35,359 nt of DNA from a virus: the UHGV virus genome UHGV-0358463. The stretch is one strand, 5' to 3'. The position numbers were made by a program, and so were the translations under genes. This document shows, piece after piece, positions 1,901 through 10,342 of the stretch. The notes under the pieces were generated by a model. The model saw only the letters and a list, made by a program, of their open reading frames with translations. It had not been told where the DNA came from and ran no database searches. Every line of letters begins with the position of its first letter. Positions within the stretch are counted from its first letter, which is position 1.

Positions 1901-2262
1901 TATGCTCCAGCCTCCGGTGCTTTTGGCATTACTGCCCAGTGAGTGATATTGACGTTTTCAAGGTCCCCGACCTGAAATGTCCACTGCCATTCTCCGGTTT
2001 CTTTTTGTCCCCAGGTGTACCAGAGAGAACGCCAGCCAATTAGCCAGCCTTCTCCGTTAGCATCGAATAACAAAACACTTTCATTTGCTGGTGGCAGTTC
2101 AGTTGACACTGGTATTACTTTGTTTTCCTGTGCTGCACATTTAGCTTCAAGCGCATCGAATTTACGCACCAGGTATTCAGCATCTGTTTCATTTACTTTC
2201 AGATCTCGCGGTACACATCTCCCACGAAGAAACCCTTCCATTTCGAAAACATTCATGCGCAT
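1900..2262 (-). CDS. hypothetical prophage protein, 120 aa (YfdS-like by size and position)
   Basis: ORF overlapping its neighbours by a few nt (operon organisation). Confidence 0.65.
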   Translation of the reverse strand: MRMNVFEMEGFLRGRCVPRDLKVNETDAEYLVRKFDALEAKCAAQENKVIPVSTELPPANESVLLFDANGEGWLIGWRSLWYTWGQKETGEWQWTFQVGDLENVNITHWAVMPKAPEAGA

Positions 2263-2789
2263 TTGCGTAACTCCGATAACTCGTTAAAGCGTTCCATAAA
2301 CATCCCGTAGGCATGGCCCGGTGCCAGTGGAATCACGTTGAACATCTCTGTTGCCGGGATACCTTCCAGTACAGGCCAGAAAGAGCCATCATCAAGCCCG
2401 AGATCGCGGCGTTCGGTTGCCAGCATGATGAGATCGGCATATTTCACGGGCGTACTCATAACTGGGGGTAACCCGTATTTCTCACGGATTACGGCGTCTA
2501 TTTTTTCTTCCATTTGTTTATAGTCAGGAAGAAGGCGTTTCAGTGGTGCGGGAATGTCCTGGCAATACGCTTCTGTTGCATCATGCATTAACGCTTCAAA
2601 AGCAAATTCCTGCGGCACCAACTGGCTGCAAAGAACCGCATGTTGGGCGACGCTGTAGAAGTGCGAAAGATGACCGGCAAAGCGACAGATATTTGAAAGG
2701 GAAACCGCGATATCGTTAATATCGATGTCGTCTTTATTTATCCTGTCATAATAAAAATGCTTCCCGGAAAAAGTTTTAATAAATGACAT
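2253..2789 (-). CDS. HD-domain phosphohydrolase (YfdR/YfbR-like 5'-deoxynucleotidase family)
   Basis: 178 aa from the ATG at 2789 with GGAG Shine-Dalgarno; HD-family-like region ...HFYSVAQHAVL...LMHDATEAY... . Confidence 0.75.
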   Translation of the reverse strand: MSFIKTFSGKHFYYDRINKDDIDINDIAVSLSNICRFAGHLSHFYSVAQHAVLCSQLVPQEFAFEALMHDATEAYCQDIPAPLKRLLPDYKQMEEKIDAVIREKYGLPPVMSTPVKYADLIMLATERRDLGLDDGSFWPVLEGIPATEMFNVIPLAPGHAYGMFMERFNELSELRKCA

Positions 2790-2916
2790 TTTGTTCTCCA
2801 CGTATATGCGCTGCACCGCGCTGAATTCTGGTAAAAAGAATCCCTCACCATCCGGCGATTATTGAGTAAATTACGTTTCCATAAATGCCCCCGCAGGGGC
2901 ATTTGCAGTAATGAAA

Positions 2917-3741
2917 TCAGGCGGTGAAAGTACCAATAAAGGTTTCTACTTTGCTGTCCTTGAATTTCTCAACAAGCAGATCACGAAATTCGTTAGCCAT
3001 TTCTTCCTGCACCGCCTCCAGCTGAATAATGCGCAGAACCAGTACAGGACGATCGCCAGTGATAATACTGAGGCGTAATTTAAACGGACGTTCTTTCAGA
3101 CCTTCAAACGGAACGCATTTAAATTCAAATGCCACTGGCATAATGTCTTTGGTCTTCGCTTCGACAGACTCCATCAGGGAGCGTTTGCCGCTGAAGTCAT
3201 TATCTTCAAAATCAGCGGTCTGGTTTGCTTCAATCGTGATTTTACGGACAGCCGCAGCCGCTTTTGTTGCCTGAATAGCGTCACCATTAGCATCAAAGCC
3301 CACAAGATAGTCGGCCCAGTCTTCAATCCATTCTGCCAGTGACTTCTGGGAGTTACGCTCGCCGTTAACAGACAACAGAGCAGAGAACGGTGCTGTCTTT
3401 TTCAGTTTGAGTGTGGCGGTGTTATCTGCGTGACCTGGTTCATCAATAGTACCCAGGTTAAGCACACTGACGGCACGCATATTATCAGCATCGATAAAGC
3501 AGCGGGTGCCTTCATCTGCAAGATCTTTAGAATAACGGGTAAAGTCATCGATGCTGGCAGCGGAAAGCGCACCACGGAAACGGAAGCGATTTAAATTAAA
3601 TTTTTCCAGATCATGAATGCGGAAATTCTCAGGCAATGCCACAGCATCGGCACCAATCTTACTGATAATTTCATTAACACCCTGAGCAGAAATAAGGGCA
3701 TGGATTTGATTAATTGCGGTTGCGTCTAAGTTCTGAGACAT
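2917..3741 (-). CDS. DUF2303-family prophage protein (YfdQ-like)
   Basis: 274 aa starting [21 protein letters not shown]; recognised from memory as the YfdQ family of cryptic prophage CPS-53. Confidence 0.75.
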
Positions 3742-3806: not shown

Positions 3807-4169
3807 TTAACGACCTGCTGCGCGGAGTTTTCCGTCAGGTTCACCGGCAAGAGTCAGTAACTGTCCCTGGTCTTCCTGCAGAATAGTCAGGCGACCACCG
3901 CGATTGACATACATCGGCGTTTCGGTGGTGTCTTCTTCGGAAATTTTCCCGCGGTTAGTCGGGCGAACATATGAGAGTTTGTGTTTGATTTTCACACGGT
4001 TCTCATCAAATGGTTCGATTTCCAGGTTGAGTGAGACCTTACCTTTGGTTTTCGTGTTCATCACACCGGAAGCGACTTCACTGAGAACTGCGCCGATTTT
4101 GGTTTCAAATACGCCGCCGTCCAGCTCCCCGATAAATGCCTGCACATCAGTACTGCGTTCGCTAGCCAT
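3807..4169 (-). CDS. hypothetical prophage protein, 120 aa (YfdP-like)
   Basis: Start placed at the ATG at 4169 (MASERSTDVQ...), 7 nt after GAGGAG. The 226-aa extension to 4487 is Arg/Cys/Trp-rich and looks like translated non-coding sequence. Confidence 0.6.
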   Translation of the reverse strand: MASERSTDVQAFIGELDGGVFETKIGAVLSEVASGVMNTKTKGKVSLNLEIEPFDENRVKIKHKLSYVRPTNRGKISEEDTTETPMYVNRGGRLTILQEDQGQLLTLAGEPDGKLRAAGR

Positions 4170-4570
4170 TTTGCTGCTCCTCATCATATCGACCCTGCAA
4201 GGCCGATTAGTTTCTCCACAAAACAGAGAAGAACACCTGCGGTGGCAGCCGCCCGGATGGATTGGGTTATGAGCCCGTCGTCCGGTGATGCTCTTCTCTG
4301 TTTTGTAAAAAGGACGGTACCAGCCGGAAGCAAGGGTACAAACTGGTACCTCCAGGACTACACACAGCATAAAGTTGTGGTGCCGGGTGCCTCCCGGTGC
4401 CTGGCGAAGGTTGCACACCAGACGGGTGGGTATCCACAGAAGGTCGACTGTCAGCCTCAACCTTAACCCGCGTGCGCTGAGCCGCATTCACCACAACGCT
4501 AAGGATTCTCTCTGGTTAAAAATACTTAGCTGTTATGTGCCTGCTTTTAGCCACATCAGGCGAGGTGGAC

Positions 4571-4623
4571 CTGGTTATTCCCCAACAACAAGGATTCGGT
4601 TAATCTGGTTATCCCCAACAACG
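4571..4623 (+). repeat. two near-identical ~19-bp direct repeats (CTGGTTATTCCCCAACAACA / CTGGTTATCCCCAACAACG) just upstream of the RBS of the 4638 gene
   Basis: Read directly: copies at 4571-4590 and 4605-4623. Confidence 0.6.
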
Positions 4624-4637
4624 CAAAAGGAAAAGAA

Positions 4638-5072
4638 ATGTCCGGTAATATCTATACGCTGTACAAATCCCACTGTGAAAATGTTGGAAAGTATCGGGGC
4701 ATTGAAATCAGTGGGGTAGTGTCATCAGTCGAAATAAGCAAAGTTGAATCAAGGGCAACATTACTTACTCTTTTGGACCTTGTCTTACATGAGCACCGGA
4801 AGAAATTCGGCACTCCCTATAATCAGTTGAATGGGAAAAAGGCTCTGGTTCACCTTATTCTGATGAAGCATCACTGGATGCCAAAACAGATTAATGAGAT
4901 GAAATTTGATGAACTTCTTCTTTCAATTCAGGATGAACTCACACTTGATAAAATAAGCGTAACCGCCCAGAAATTTTTAGATTATCGAGACTGGAGATCA
5001 CAAATTCATCACTTTGATGATTTTGACGAAAATGAATGGGATCCTAATTTGTCTGCACAATATCTAAAGTAA
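4638..5072 (+). CDS. hypothetical protein, 144 aa
   Basis: ORF with AAGGA Shine-Dalgarno; transcribed against the surrounding leftward early genes; no family recognised. Confidence 0.55.
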   Translation: MSGNIYTLYKSHCENVGKYRGIEISGVVSSVEISKVESRATLLTLLDLVLHEHRKKFGTPYNQLNGKKALVHLILMKHHWMPKQINEMKFDELLLSIQDELTLDKISVTAQKFLDYRDWRSQIHHFDDFDENEWDPNLSAQYLK

Positions 5073-5250
5073 CATCCTGTGATAAAACCGTGATTTCCTG
5101 ATCCAGTTTTTTTAAGGAGTCTATTGTTTCCTGTCGATAAGACAGCACTTCACGAAGCTGGTTTATAGCTGCCAGCTTCTTTGTCATCCACTCATAAATT
5201 TCCTCATCTGTGTAGCCAGGCGCGACGATTTTGGGTTCTGTTTTGTGCAT
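5044..5250 (-). CDS. hypothetical small protein, 68 aa
   Basis: ATG at 5250 preceded by GAGGAG (7-nt spacing); 3' end overlaps the 4638-5072 gene by 29 nt on the opposite strand. Confidence 0.5.
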   Translation of the reverse strand: MHKTEPKIVAPGYTDEEIYEWMTKKLAAINQLREVLSYRQETIDSLKKLDQEITVLSQDVTLDIVQTN

Positions 5251-5309
5251 TTCACATCTCCTCAAGTTATCAGTTACTTGTTGATGGGGACCAGATTGTT
5301 AAAGAGCTA

Positions 5310-5332
5310 AGCGTCCTGTAGGGCGCTTTTTT
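5310..5332 (+). terminator. candidate intrinsic terminator (7-bp stem with one G-U pair, then TTTTTTGTT)
   Basis: AGCGTCC-tgta-GGGCGCT followed by a T-run. Confidence 0.4.
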
Positions 5333-5498
5333 GTTGCTAACGAATCATCCTGGACTTCATATGCCCCAGGCGGCTACTTCGTGGGCGTCCTGCCTGTTCG
5401 TTTTTGACATTTACTGACTGCTTACGACACATGCACCGTGTTGCAACCAGATTTTGTTGTAATCCTGTAGTTGGTCTGGAACAAAAGATAAAATTAAA

Positions 5499-5535
5499 TT
5501 GCGAGATATGCAAGTGATGTTTGCGAAATATGCAA
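5499..5535. promoter_or_regulatory. left operator/promoter region: two 15-bp sites TTGCGAGATATGCAA (5499-5513) and TTGCGAAATATGCAA (5521-5535); candidate leftward -35 TTGCAT (5507-5512) and -10 TATCTT (5485-5490)
   Basis: Same TTGCG-N6-GCAA motif as right of the repressor gene; the -35 hexamer lies inside a site. Confidence 0.45.
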
Positions 5536-5544
5536 ATTTATAGG

Positions 5545-5589: not shown

Positions 5590-6282
5590 TTAATTATGTC
5601 TCTTAAGGGTTTGCGACTGACTGATTAAGACCTTTCCAAAGACCATGAATCGGTGTTCGTTTTCGCTAGTAATTCCCCATTCACGGTAAATCTGGTTATC
5701 AGAAATCACCAGCAGTTTGTCAGGAATCATTTGAAGTCTTTTAACGTATATTTTGTCATCAAAACCAAAGACATATATACCATCACCATCAAACTGATTG
5801 ATGCTGACATCAACGAAGATGAGATCTCCTGGCTCAATGGTTGGACACATACTGTCCCCACGAACGTTGATAACTTTGATGTGATTGGCTGGTCGTCCGC
5901 CGAACATTGATACAGCATTATCAGTTCTGTATTCGATGGCATGAATCACATCAATGACATCACCGCCCTGGATAAGGCCATTTCCCGCACTGGCACTGAT
6001 ATCCAGCATTTCAATACGGAACACATCCTTCACCTGCGCAACATCCTCATTATTACTGTTTTTATATACAGTATTACTTTTGTGGGCAGAGGTAAAGAGA
6101 TCAGCAATATCAACACCTAAGCTCTTGGCAATATTACTCAGTGTTTGTTCGGTAAATTGTTTTTGCTTACCCGTTTCTAAGCGCGAGATGTTCGCCGCAT
6201 CTACTCCTATTGCTTCAGCGAGATCGGCGATTTTCATGTTCTTCGCTTGGCGAAGTTGTCTGACTCGGTTTCCTATGTTCAT
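5590..6282 (-). CDS. cI-type prophage repressor (N-terminal XRE HTH, C-terminal S24 LexA-like peptidase)
   Basis: 230 aa; HTH region IADLAEAIGVDAANISRLETGK; S24 signature ...VRGDSMCPTIEPGDLIFVD...YVKRL... . Confidence 0.9.
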   Translation of the reverse strand: MNIGNRVRQLRQAKNMKIADLAEAIGVDAANISRLETGKQKQFTEQTLSNIAKSLGVDIADLFTSAHKSNTVYKNSNNEDVAQVKDVFRIEMLDISASAGNGLIQGGDVIDVIHAIEYRTDNAVSMFGGRPANHIKVINVRGDSMCPTIEPGDLIFVDVSINQFDGDGIYVFGFDDKIYVKRLQMIPDKLLVISDNQIYREWGITSENEHRFMVFGKVLISQSQTLKRHN

Positions 6283-6379: not shown

Positions 6380-6640
6380 ATGCAATCACCATTACGAAAT
6401 GTGCGTAAGGCGCATGGTTTCACTTTGCAGCATGTTGCTGCGGGTGTTCAAGTCAATCCAGCGACGTTGAGTCGTATTGAGAGGCTGGAGCAGATTCCAT
6501 CTATCGAGCTTGCAGAACGTTTAGCCAATTTTTTTAAGGGTGAAGTCAGCGAAATGCAGATTCTTTATCCGGCACGTTTTCAATCTAGCCAAAACCAGAA
6601 TGGGTTTAAACCACAGGAACAGGAGGTGAACCGTGGGTAA
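6380..6640 (+). CDS. Cro-like HTH regulator (XRE family)
   Basis: 86 aa; HTH GFTLQHVAAGVQVNPATLSRIERLEQIPSIELAERLANFF; divergent from the repressor; GGAGGG Shine-Dalgarno. Confidence 0.8.
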   Translation: MQSPLRNVRKAHGFTLQHVAAGVQVNPATLSRIERLEQIPSIELAERLANFFKGEVSEMQILYPARFQSSQNQNGFKPQEQEVNRG

Positions 6641-9937: not shown

Positions 9938-10323
9938 AGCTGATCTTGCCTTTCCCGCCCAGCGTGAACACGTACTGGCGACACCCCAACAAAGGGGCGT
10001 TTGTAGGTAAAAGCCTGATAAGCGAGGCGGGGCGAAAATTCCAGAGCGCGGCGTGCGCAGCAATAGTTGAGCAGTTACGTCGTCTGCCGAAACCAACGTC
10101 GGCACCTGCTTCAGTGGAGATCGTGTTGTTTCCTCCGGATAACCGGATCCGCGATCTGGACAACTATAACAAGGCGCTGTTTGACGCCCTGACCCACGCG
10201 GGGGTGTGGGAAGACGACAGCCAGGTGAAAAGAATGCTGGTGGAGTGGGGGCCGGTTATCCCGGAAGGGAAGGTCGAGATCACTATCAGTAAGTACGAGA
10301 AAACGGCGGGTGCAGCCGCCTGA
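9934..10323 (+). CDS. rusA: RusA-family Holliday junction resolvase
   Basis: 129 aa; MKLILPFPPSVNTYWRH...IRDLDNYNKALFDALTHAGVWEDDSQV is characteristic of RusA. Confidence 0.85.
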   Translation: MKLILPFPPSVNTYWRHPNKGAFVGKSLISEAGRKFQSAACAAIVEQLRRLPKPTSAPASVEIVLFPPDNRIRDLDNYNKALFDALTHAGVWEDDSQVKRMLVEWGPVIPEGKVEITISKYEKTAGAAA

Positions 10324-10342
10324 TTAAGAGGAGAAACGAAGT

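Follow-up and report, generated by a model that had tools for sequence, protein, structure and literature searches.

The window analysed in the present study is the whole of a 35,359-nucleotide (nt) stretch of DNA, the UHGV virus genome UHGV-0358463, and the subject is the interval at 4170-4637, between yfdP and a divergent gene of the ECs1072 family. An earlier note, made from the sequence alone, had described this interval as a GC-rich gap with no credible open reading frame (ORF), had offered a structured RNA, a regulatory or recombination site, or a decayed gene remnant as explanations, and had named a covariance-model scan and comparative covariation among the checks. Herein, we propose, with a probability of roughly two in three (0.68), that the gap is a transcribed, non-coding early-left leader on the minus strand, consisting of a small-RNA domain of the STnc100/PasD/sRNA-17 kind (element A) with an intrinsic terminator, and then a cis-acting leader (element B) before yfdP. 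The idea of a structured RNA is thus upheld by two minus-strand elements with covariation, one of which has an experimentally detected counterpart in the same slot. The interval itself stands as described, and its treatment as one feature has given way to at least two RNA elements and a conserved upstream block (4537-4622). The elements are as follows, with lengths in base pairs (bp) or nt.

4170-4637: the gap, the exact intergenic interval between yfdP and the ECs1072-family gene.
4307..4527, minus strand: element A, of the STnc100/PasD/sRNA-17 kind, a small or leader RNA.
4374..4497, minus strand: multi-helix core of A, from the Rfam alignment and the minimum-free-energy fold.
4497-4489 with 4382-4374, minus strand: helix P1 of A.
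Between the strands of P1 and P5, minus strand: helices P2 to P4 of A.
4397-4383, minus strand: P5 hairpin of A, CCGGG-AGGCA-CCCGG.
4307..4353, minus strand: intrinsic terminator, with stem 4353-4343 with 4323-4312, a loop of 19 nt and a U-run at 4311-4307.
4167..4306, minus strand: element B, beginning at the base that follows the U-run and ending with the yfdP AUG.
4218..4306, minus strand: three-way-junction domain of B.
4306-4287 with 4237-4218, minus strand: helix P1 of B, 20 bp.
4285-4281 with 4257-4253, minus strand: helix P2 of B.
4276-4264, minus strand: P3 hairpin of B, GGGCUCAUAACCC.
4251-4249 with 4242-4240, minus strand: helix P4 of B.
4219-4210, minus strand: conserved single strand GUGGAGAAAC.
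4206-4189, minus strand: P5 hairpin of B, in which 96.7% of cells pair.
4182-4177, minus strand: Shine-Dalgarno sequence GAGGAG.

First, element B is apparently an undescribed conserved RNA motif, and it is well supported. Loci containing yfdP were collected in one genome-collection scan and four viral-collection scans, and the 192 unique leaders obtained were thinned until no two shared more than 90% identity; the 49 sequences left were aligned with MAFFT (alignment A2) and compared with a hand-drawn structure. On this alignment, 89.7% of the cells pair and 23 of the 36 pairs change on both sides; none of 500 shuffles reached any of these measures, and slid controls paired in 35-52%. Changes on both sides were observed in 13 of the 20 pairs of helix P1, and RNAalifold independently recovered this helix, scoring 12 of 15 pairs as compensatory. 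Because the subtypes are out of register in the raw MAFFT alignments, RNAalifold reached only the outer helices there, and hand-drawn structures and model-based realignment were used in its place. P1 is an uninterrupted 20-bp helix in the window; most homologues have one conserved C-U or C-C mismatch. The covariance model built for B (R1) scored 117.3 bits on the minus strand and 39.7 bits on the plus strand, with no second significant copy in the window (the next best, at 10282-10341, had E=0.03). Element B alone gave a fold z-score of -4.74, and its minimum-free-energy fold is the hand-drawn structure. For the whole gap, folding better than chance is confined to the minus strand (z-scores against shuffled sequences of -4.43 for the minus strand and -1.52 for the plus strand). 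The Rfam search of B at E<=10 returned only a chance-level 'Hairpin ribozyme' on the plus strand (14.5 bits, E=8.3), and no Rfam match at E<=0.01 was obtained in element B of 17 related loci.

Element B is conserved, with strong compensatory changes, across many prophages of Enterobacterales. In a motif scan independent of yfdP, it preceded yfdP in 84 of the 115 loci with enough downstream DNA and other first genes in the remaining 31, these being rdgC-like genes (305-309 amino acids, aa), yfdR and another 305-aa family. Since B precedes both yfdP and other first genes, it is a generic leader of the early-left operon rather than a yfdP-specific one. Two candidate functions of B were considered and set aside. 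Pairing between its loop CUCAU and the start-codon sequence AUGAG is short and not conserved, and the rdgC-type genes start otherwise; the boxA-like UGCUCUUU in the 3' arm is unlikely to be a NusB/E site because it is base-paired and covarying.

Second, element A is a divergent new member of a known prophage small-RNA family, located in an unusual early-left context. In a permissive 1-kb search, the Rfam model STnc100 (RF02076) matched 4305-4527 on the minus strand over its full length (model positions 1-206) with 38.4 bits and E=1.3e-6, and the match contains the closing helix UGGUG...CACCA and the hairpin CCGGG-AGGCA-CCCGG. The segments UGGUGAAU and CACCGGGAGGCACCCGGCACCA of A are near-identical to the STnc100 consensus. 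Copies in the same slot, in phages and in the L-numbered loci gathered through YfdP, scored 53 bits in L272 (above the cut-off), 39.5 in SfV, 36.9 in L008 and 35.1 in ST64B, and all four were matched by R2, a covariance model built from 19 variants of element A. With these same-slot scores of 35-53 bits, the window copy falls, as a divergent member, within a continuous series to which accepted STnc100 also belongs. R2 scored 102.9 bits on the window, in which no second copy was found. In the R2-fitted alignment (A5), 93.5% of the cells pair and 11 of the 26 pairs change on both sides, values reached by none of 500 shuffles and compared with 29-72% pairing in slid controls, all of these covariation figures being flattered by the fitting of A5 to the structure; the raw MAFFT alignment already contains P5 arms of CCGGG/CCCGG versus GGUGG/CCACC around the invariant loop AGGCA. 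Of the checks named by the earlier note, the Rfam scan yielded a sub-threshold match for A and nothing above chance level for B, and the comparison across homologues yielded compensatory pairs in each element. The 3' end of A is the U-run at 4311-4307, and its 5' end is uncertain, 4527 being the start of the Rfam model and 4498 the counterpart of the 5' end mapped for sRNA-17.

STnc100 and PasD have been reported to be related prophage small RNAs, which usually lie in the late region. Like them, A is prophage-borne, about 200 nt long, and provided with the closing helix, the CCGGG-AGGCA-CCCGG hairpin and a 3' intrinsic terminator; unlike STnc100, it falls below the Rfam cut-off and differs in the middle helices. 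Canonical STnc100 and PasD are found between Q and the lysis genes or 3' of stx2, whereas A lies between the ECs1072-family gene and yfdP, as part of the early-left leader, and so outside the late-region context usual for the family. PasD of pathogenic E. coli is reported to be bound to Hfq and to have many mRNA partners by RIL-seq, in which interacting RNAs are ligated and sequenced. The genome of EDL933 contains 11 STnc100 copies, most of which are transcribed and one of which has been verified by Northern blotting. Two other pairings involving A were rejected. A riboswitch-like antiterminator, in which the 5' arm of the terminator pairs with ACCGCCA, is available in one subtype of A, which is not that of the window, and the complementarity for pairing of A with B in trans is short and not conserved. 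Another small RNA, isrK (RF01394), was observed above its cut-off (64.3 bits) in the early-right region of ST64B (L116:5231-5307).

Third, an intrinsic terminator separates A from B. The earlier note had pointed to complementary segments in this part of the gap, and these are real: GGTACCAG at 4316-4323 and CTGGTACC at 4343-4350 form part of the terminator stem rather than a free-standing motif. The terminator was missed by the scan tool because the tool permits loops of at most 8 nt. Of 350 loci, 334 had a hairpin with a T-run in the same place before B, the stem sequences being unrelated, and the U-run 3' of the hairpin exists on the minus strand only. In 17 of 80 loci of the E. coli type, homology to the window ends at 4354 or 4369, immediately 5' of the terminator; in 21 it ends at 4568 and in 13 at 4622. 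We infer that the terminator and B move jointly, as a single mosaic unit, with any variant of A upstream and any gene following, such as yfdP, an rdgC-like gene or yfdR.

Fourth, an RNA from the same slot has been detected experimentally in a related prophage. The small RNA sRNA-17 of E. coli K1 RS218 is 193 nt long, was mapped by 5'/3' rapid amplification of cDNA ends (RACE) and was detected by Northern blotting (PMC7719688). The locus used here for sRNA-17 is L066, an RS218/mEp460-type sequence from IMG/VR, which matches the published primers (5' end CGTTGTGGTGAATGCG, 3' end ...CTGGTACCGCTCTTTT; PMC7719688) end to end. In L066 the sRNA-17 sequence is followed directly by element B and yfdP, and the 3' RACE end maps to the counterpart of the terminator U-run (4311-4307). 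In a joint alignment (A4), the window and sRNA-17 share the first ~16 nt, the CACCACAAC strand, which is the 3' strand of the closing helix, and the whole terminator; the core columns of sRNA-17 fail to align with the core of A. The two RNAs are thus alike in occupying the slot directly 5' of the terminator, element B and yfdP, and in sharing both ends. The RACE and Northern results, taken with this shared slot, provide direct experimental evidence that an RNA is made from the slot and ends at the terminator.

sRNA-17 was published as a virulence small RNA controlled by ArcA, which was reported to bind the DNA upstream (PMC7719688). In L066, however, the leftward early promoter pL (TTGCAT-17-TATCTT, with operators as in the window) is located ~270 nt upstream of sRNA-17 with no intervening gene, the published 'promoter' fragment and the forward primer for quantitative reverse-transcription PCR fall inside the pL leader (L066:895-1363), and the RACE 5' end falls in the 3' arm of an upstream long helix. 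On these three grounds, the simplest reading of the sequence is that sRNA-17 is a pL leader that has been processed and terminated, and not a gene of its own under ArcA control. In the sRNA-17 locus the RNA comes directly after pL, whereas in the window accessory genes intervene. In the lysogen carrying sRNA-17, yfdP and yfdR are silent. A mutant in which the core of sRNA-17 was replaced showed a 96-fold increase in yfdP and a rise of yfdR from 0, and it retains the chloramphenicol-resistance (CmR) cassette and most of the terminator (PMC7719688). The rise of yfdP and yfdR in this CmR-marked mutant looks like a cis effect. As a separate observation, a strong sigma-70 promoter (TTGACA-18-TACATT) in L075 (~470-700) is followed within ~12 nt by GUUGUGGUGAAUGCGCAGG..., the 5' half of an sRNA-17-type domain, which there forms the 5' untranslated region of a small ORF; the RNA module is reused as an untranslated region.

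The setting of the gap supplies the transcription unit to which these elements belong. The prophage is a lambdoid of the SfIV/SfV/ST64B/mEp460 type; the window is SfIV/SfV-like, and the gap is 99.8% identical to that of Shigella phage SfIV. The integration site adjoins the tRNA at 115-187, the sole Rfam tRNA match in the window. The neighbouring features are as follows.

Left end of the local gene order, minus strand: int and xis.
2253-2816, minus strand: yfdR.
2917-3741, minus strand: yfdQ.
3807-4169, minus strand: yfdP, which heads the yfdP-yfdQ-yfdR-xis-int block; start codon at 4169-4167.
4537..4622, minus strand: conserved upstream block, between A and the ECs1072-family gene.
4622-4605 and 4588-4570: direct repeats GTTGTTGGGGA(A)TAACCAG of the upstream block, 34 nt apart.
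4567-4537: CCACC-N2-GCCTGATGTGG-NN-AAAAG-CAGGC of the upstream block.
4638-5072, plus strand: ECs1072-family gene, divergent, with its ATG at 4638.
5047-5250, minus strand: 68-aa ORF.
5590-6282, minus strand: cI-like repressor gene.
6380-6640, plus strand: cro-like gene.

The borders of the gap are fixed because PHROG profiles cover both flanking proteins, YfdP and the ECs1072-family protein, completely. Operators of the form TTGCGAnATATGCAA lie between cI and cro and again at ~5495-5540, where a leftward promoter (TTGCAT-17-TATCTT) overlaps them; this overlap identifies the promoter as pL and the genes from yfdP to int as the early-left operon. In other loci the leader runs in the order of pL or the conserved block, a long-helix 'module 1' (ACAAC...GUUGU), an A-type domain, the terminator and B. 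The GC content is 0.53-0.57 over 4051-4500, compared with 0.36-0.49 in the flanks, and no tandem repeats were found. Of 5426 complete E. coli genomes, 2860 contained some part of a 601-bp stretch covering this region and 1027 contained at least 80% of it; the stretch also occurs in Shigella, Salmonella and many further prophages of Enterobacterales.

Existing annotations place protein genes in the gap, and three of them bear on the non-coding reading.

4184-4494, minus strand: PGAP 'hypothetical protein, frameshifted' (pseudogene).
3807-4487, minus strand: SfIVp34, the 226-aa long form of yfdP in the SfIV record.
4242-4463 (4242-4466 as annotated), plus strand: ORF matching phrog_3651 (E=8e-49), corresponding to SfIVp35 (114 aa).

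A decayed or frameshifted protein gene, whether the PGAP pseudogene, a long yfdP or the phrog_3651 ORF, would account for the pseudogene annotated here, for the presence of both SfIVp34 and SfIVp35 in the SfIV record, and for the profile match of the plus-strand ORF, but it is extremely improbable. Among the 49 non-redundant homologues of the yfdP-proximal half, neither strand has a frame that stays open in more than 13, and the lengths of the 49 are spread evenly over the three classes modulo 3. Of 239 loci that YfdP queries returned from other genera, 148 close the in-frame extension of yfdP within 60 nt. The ORFs of the gap overlap one another on both strands, no Pfam domain was found in them, and the substitutions in the helices are compensatory. 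Moreover, the three calls are mutually incompatible in strand and frame, and they overlie covarying RNA helices; they are probably propagated spurious calls. The earlier note was right to take the overlapping ORFs as non-coding, and its suggestion of a decayed gene remnant is not supported.

The inverted repeats might instead work as DNA, forming an operator, a cruciform or a recombination site, and this is very improbable for the gap as a whole, applying at most to the upstream block at 4537-4622. Long inverted repeats are present, the direct repeats of the block together with a GCCTG...CAGGC palindrome could bind proteins, and the reported binding of ArcA upstream of sRNA-17 would fit such a site. 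The helices, however, contain many G-U pairs, which exist on the minus strand only, the scores of R1 are strand-specific (117 bits minus, 40 plus), the U-run likewise follows the hairpin on the minus strand only, and a homologous RNA has been detected experimentally. The recombination site offered by the earlier note has no support, given the same strand specificity. The upstream block recurs in ~50 distinct contexts, often beside the start of a divergent accessory gene, and no conserved -10 or -35 element was found by eye across them. This block may be a promoter or operator for A, for the divergent gene or for both, or a further transcribed RNA module.

Herein, we propose the following course of events for the leader. 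Polymerase on the minus strand would first make A, a closed multi-helix STnc100 domain, and then the terminator at 4353-4307, where most polymerases would stop and release a stable RNA of ~190-220 nt. By analogy with Hfq-bound PasD, the released RNA might act in trans. Termination would keep yfdP-yfdQ-yfdR-xis-int silent in the lysogen, in the manner of an attenuator, and would insulate xis and int. After induction, read-through transcripts would carry B as a cis-acting leader. As a weakly held guess, B might be an RNase III-type processing or stability site, at which the mRNA would be parted from the leader or small RNA and its own 5' end would be set. RNase III processing hairpins are known from phage leaders such as the lambda N leader and the T7 R sites. 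B is like these in that a helix of some 20 bp separates the first gene's ribosome-binding site from the RNA upstream; it differs in that its helix closes a conserved three-way junction with a sequence-conserved loop. Short stable RNAs at the start of an operon, possibly processed and with downstream genes that need read-through, are likewise known from the lambda pR'-tR' 6S RNA and the P4 CI and P1 C4 leader RNAs. The likeness of A to these RNAs lies in the layout, and there is no homology; the Rfam C4 family was not matched, nor were target repeats resembling seqA/seqC of P4 found.

Several observations weigh against the reading of the gap as a transcribed leader with these parts. Element A lies under the STnc100 gathering threshold (38.4 against 47 bits) and is unlisted in the gathering-threshold scan of the whole window, and its fold alone, with a z-score of -1.0, is not significant by itself. 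The promoter scan found no sigma-70 promoter for A on the minus strand at 4528-4637, and between pL and A the window contains the 68-aa ORF and the antisense of the ECs1072-family gene. The transcript evidence comes entirely from relatives, such as the sRNA-17 locus of RS218. For sRNA-17 itself, no Rfam match was obtained on L066 and R2 gave only 18.8 bits, so that its core is unrelated to A by Rfam and weakly related by R2. Transcription running out of the CmR cassette that the sRNA-17 mutant retains may account for its rise in yfdP. The RNase III-type role of B is a guess modelled on the 20-bp helix, its position and the location of the sRNA-17 5' end in a similar helix.

The need to pass the terminator is the main point of a different proposal, in which the leader modules are cis-acting antiterminator RNAs that modify polymerase, as HK022 put does, and the small RNA is a by-product. 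Although we consider this proposal rather unlikely, a number of features fit it. No N-like protein is evident after pL, where the first ORF is of 68 aa, without an arginine-rich motif or annotated function. In L260, the module chain starts directly after an HK022-like pL with ATGTAC operators, in the position of HK022 putL. A terminator, always present, stands in the way of xis and int expression and has to be read through, and STnc100-type modules also occur in long antiterminated late operons. HK022 put is ~70 nt long, consists of two stem-loops and has no terminator of its own. The leader shares with it the nature of a structured RNA in the early-operon leader of an N-less lambdoid phage and, in L260, the position relative to pL, but it has no sequence or covariance-model similarity to putL or putR. 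Blastn and local alignment revealed no similarity to HK022 putL, and R1 and R2 found nothing in the HK022 immunity region (L356). Since B lies 3' of the terminator, it cannot help polymerase to pass it, and loci exist in which the terminator and B follow a quite different upstream module. The relatives of A, moreover, accumulate as discrete small RNAs, and PasD is reported to be bound to Hfq and to have many mRNA partners, results that favour the terminated leader with a small RNA of its own.

Within element B of this terminated leader, the P3 hairpin resembles initiator tRNA; this likeness was spotted only in retrospect, and it may represent either a functional mimic or a relic. The 14 nt of CGGGCUCAUAACCC (4277-4264) agree at every position with the E. 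coli tRNAfMet anticodon stem-loop, among them the three G-C pairs characteristic of an initiator tRNA (sequence for comparison from PMC8887418), and in the fold of B the hairpin has the same register as in the tRNA. Among the 180 unique yfdP-anchored leaders, 112 contain GGG-N7-CCC, and in 111 of these 112 CAU occupies the anticodon position. The same motif, over 21 nt (GACGGGCUCAUAACCCAAUCC), was observed in another folded leader (L359:60-280, and the minus strand of L466), which lies between a terminator and holin-like membrane ORFs (89 and 130 aa); Rfam gave no match in these holin-leader loci. In L194, L264, L267 and L396, module 1 contains one or two hairpins resembling the T arm of tRNA, e.g. 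GUCUGGUUCGAUUCCAGAC and GUCCGUUCGAUUCGGAC.

It is possible, though quite unlikely, that B mimics the anticodon arm of tRNAfMet and binds methionyl-tRNA synthetase, the 30S P site with initiation factor 3, or a VapC-type toxin that cleaves tRNAfMet, serving as a regulatory operator or as a decoy early in infection. Such mimicry would explain the identity over 14 nt with its G-C pairs and register, the retention of CAU while the neighbouring helices covary, the reuse of the motif in another scaffold and the T-arm-like hairpins in the upstream modules of other loci. On the other hand, about one-third of the leaders lack the GGG-N7-CCC hairpin or have other loops, ARAGORN found no tRNA or tmRNA in 4000-4800 and Rfam found no tRNA cloverleaf in B, and a match noticed post hoc may be a relic of a tRNA gene. 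A broader and still speculative version, to which we give a low probability, is that B represents an undescribed class of leader RNA, the most conserved part of which would be a copy of the initiator-tRNA anticodon arm displayed by the three-way junction, that engages a factor recognising tRNAfMet, and either gates the early-left operon (yfdP/rdgC...xis-int) or acts as a decoy for toxins that cleave initiator tRNA; together with A and the other modules, it would provide protein-independent control in N-less lambdoid phages.

Reading the gap as a terminated RNA leader has several consequences. It corrects inconsistent annotations, namely a pseudogene, an extended yfdP and antisense 'hypothetical proteins', and it links three separately named small RNAs, STnc100, PasD and sRNA-17, to one modular leader architecture. 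It suggests that sRNA-17 is a terminated and processed prophage pL leader, in which case the rise of yfdP and yfdR in the mutant would be in cis. In a large group of lambdoid phages without N, the unit of terminator and leader probably controls the genes for excision and integration, and B, as a well-supported new RNA motif with a copy of the tRNAfMet anticodon arm, is open to direct testing.

Further variation of the leader was observed in other loci and in the rest of the early-left region. In L008 and L173, the A-type domain replaces the junction of B directly before GUGGAGA. The conserved upstream block is often preceded by a hairpin CUUGG-UUGUGUGAGAAC-CCAAG, and in L188 it lies within the pL leader. 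A pL-proximal leader ACGAACAGGCAGGACGCCCACGAAGUAGCCGCCUGGGGCAUAUGAAGUCCAGGAUGAUUCGU, at 5320-5385 on the minus strand of the window, is kept in other loci, including L182 and L188, with one compensatory change (CUGG/CCAG versus CCGG/CCGG), and this region may be a further structured leader module. The ECs1072-family gene appears to be an inserted accessory gene (moron), other mosaic classes being without it, and two terminator-like hairpins on the plus strand, at 5154-5179 and 5309-5328, lie 3' of it; these are consistent with a self-contained accessory insert that is antisense within the pL transcription unit. In the Providencia-type loci (L279, L030, L278 and L280), a gene for a phage CsrA homologue (MLILTRRV...) lies between the conserved block and the terminator-plus-B unit, ~60 nt after the block, and has its own leader with a GUGUGGAGUAA motif like that after B.

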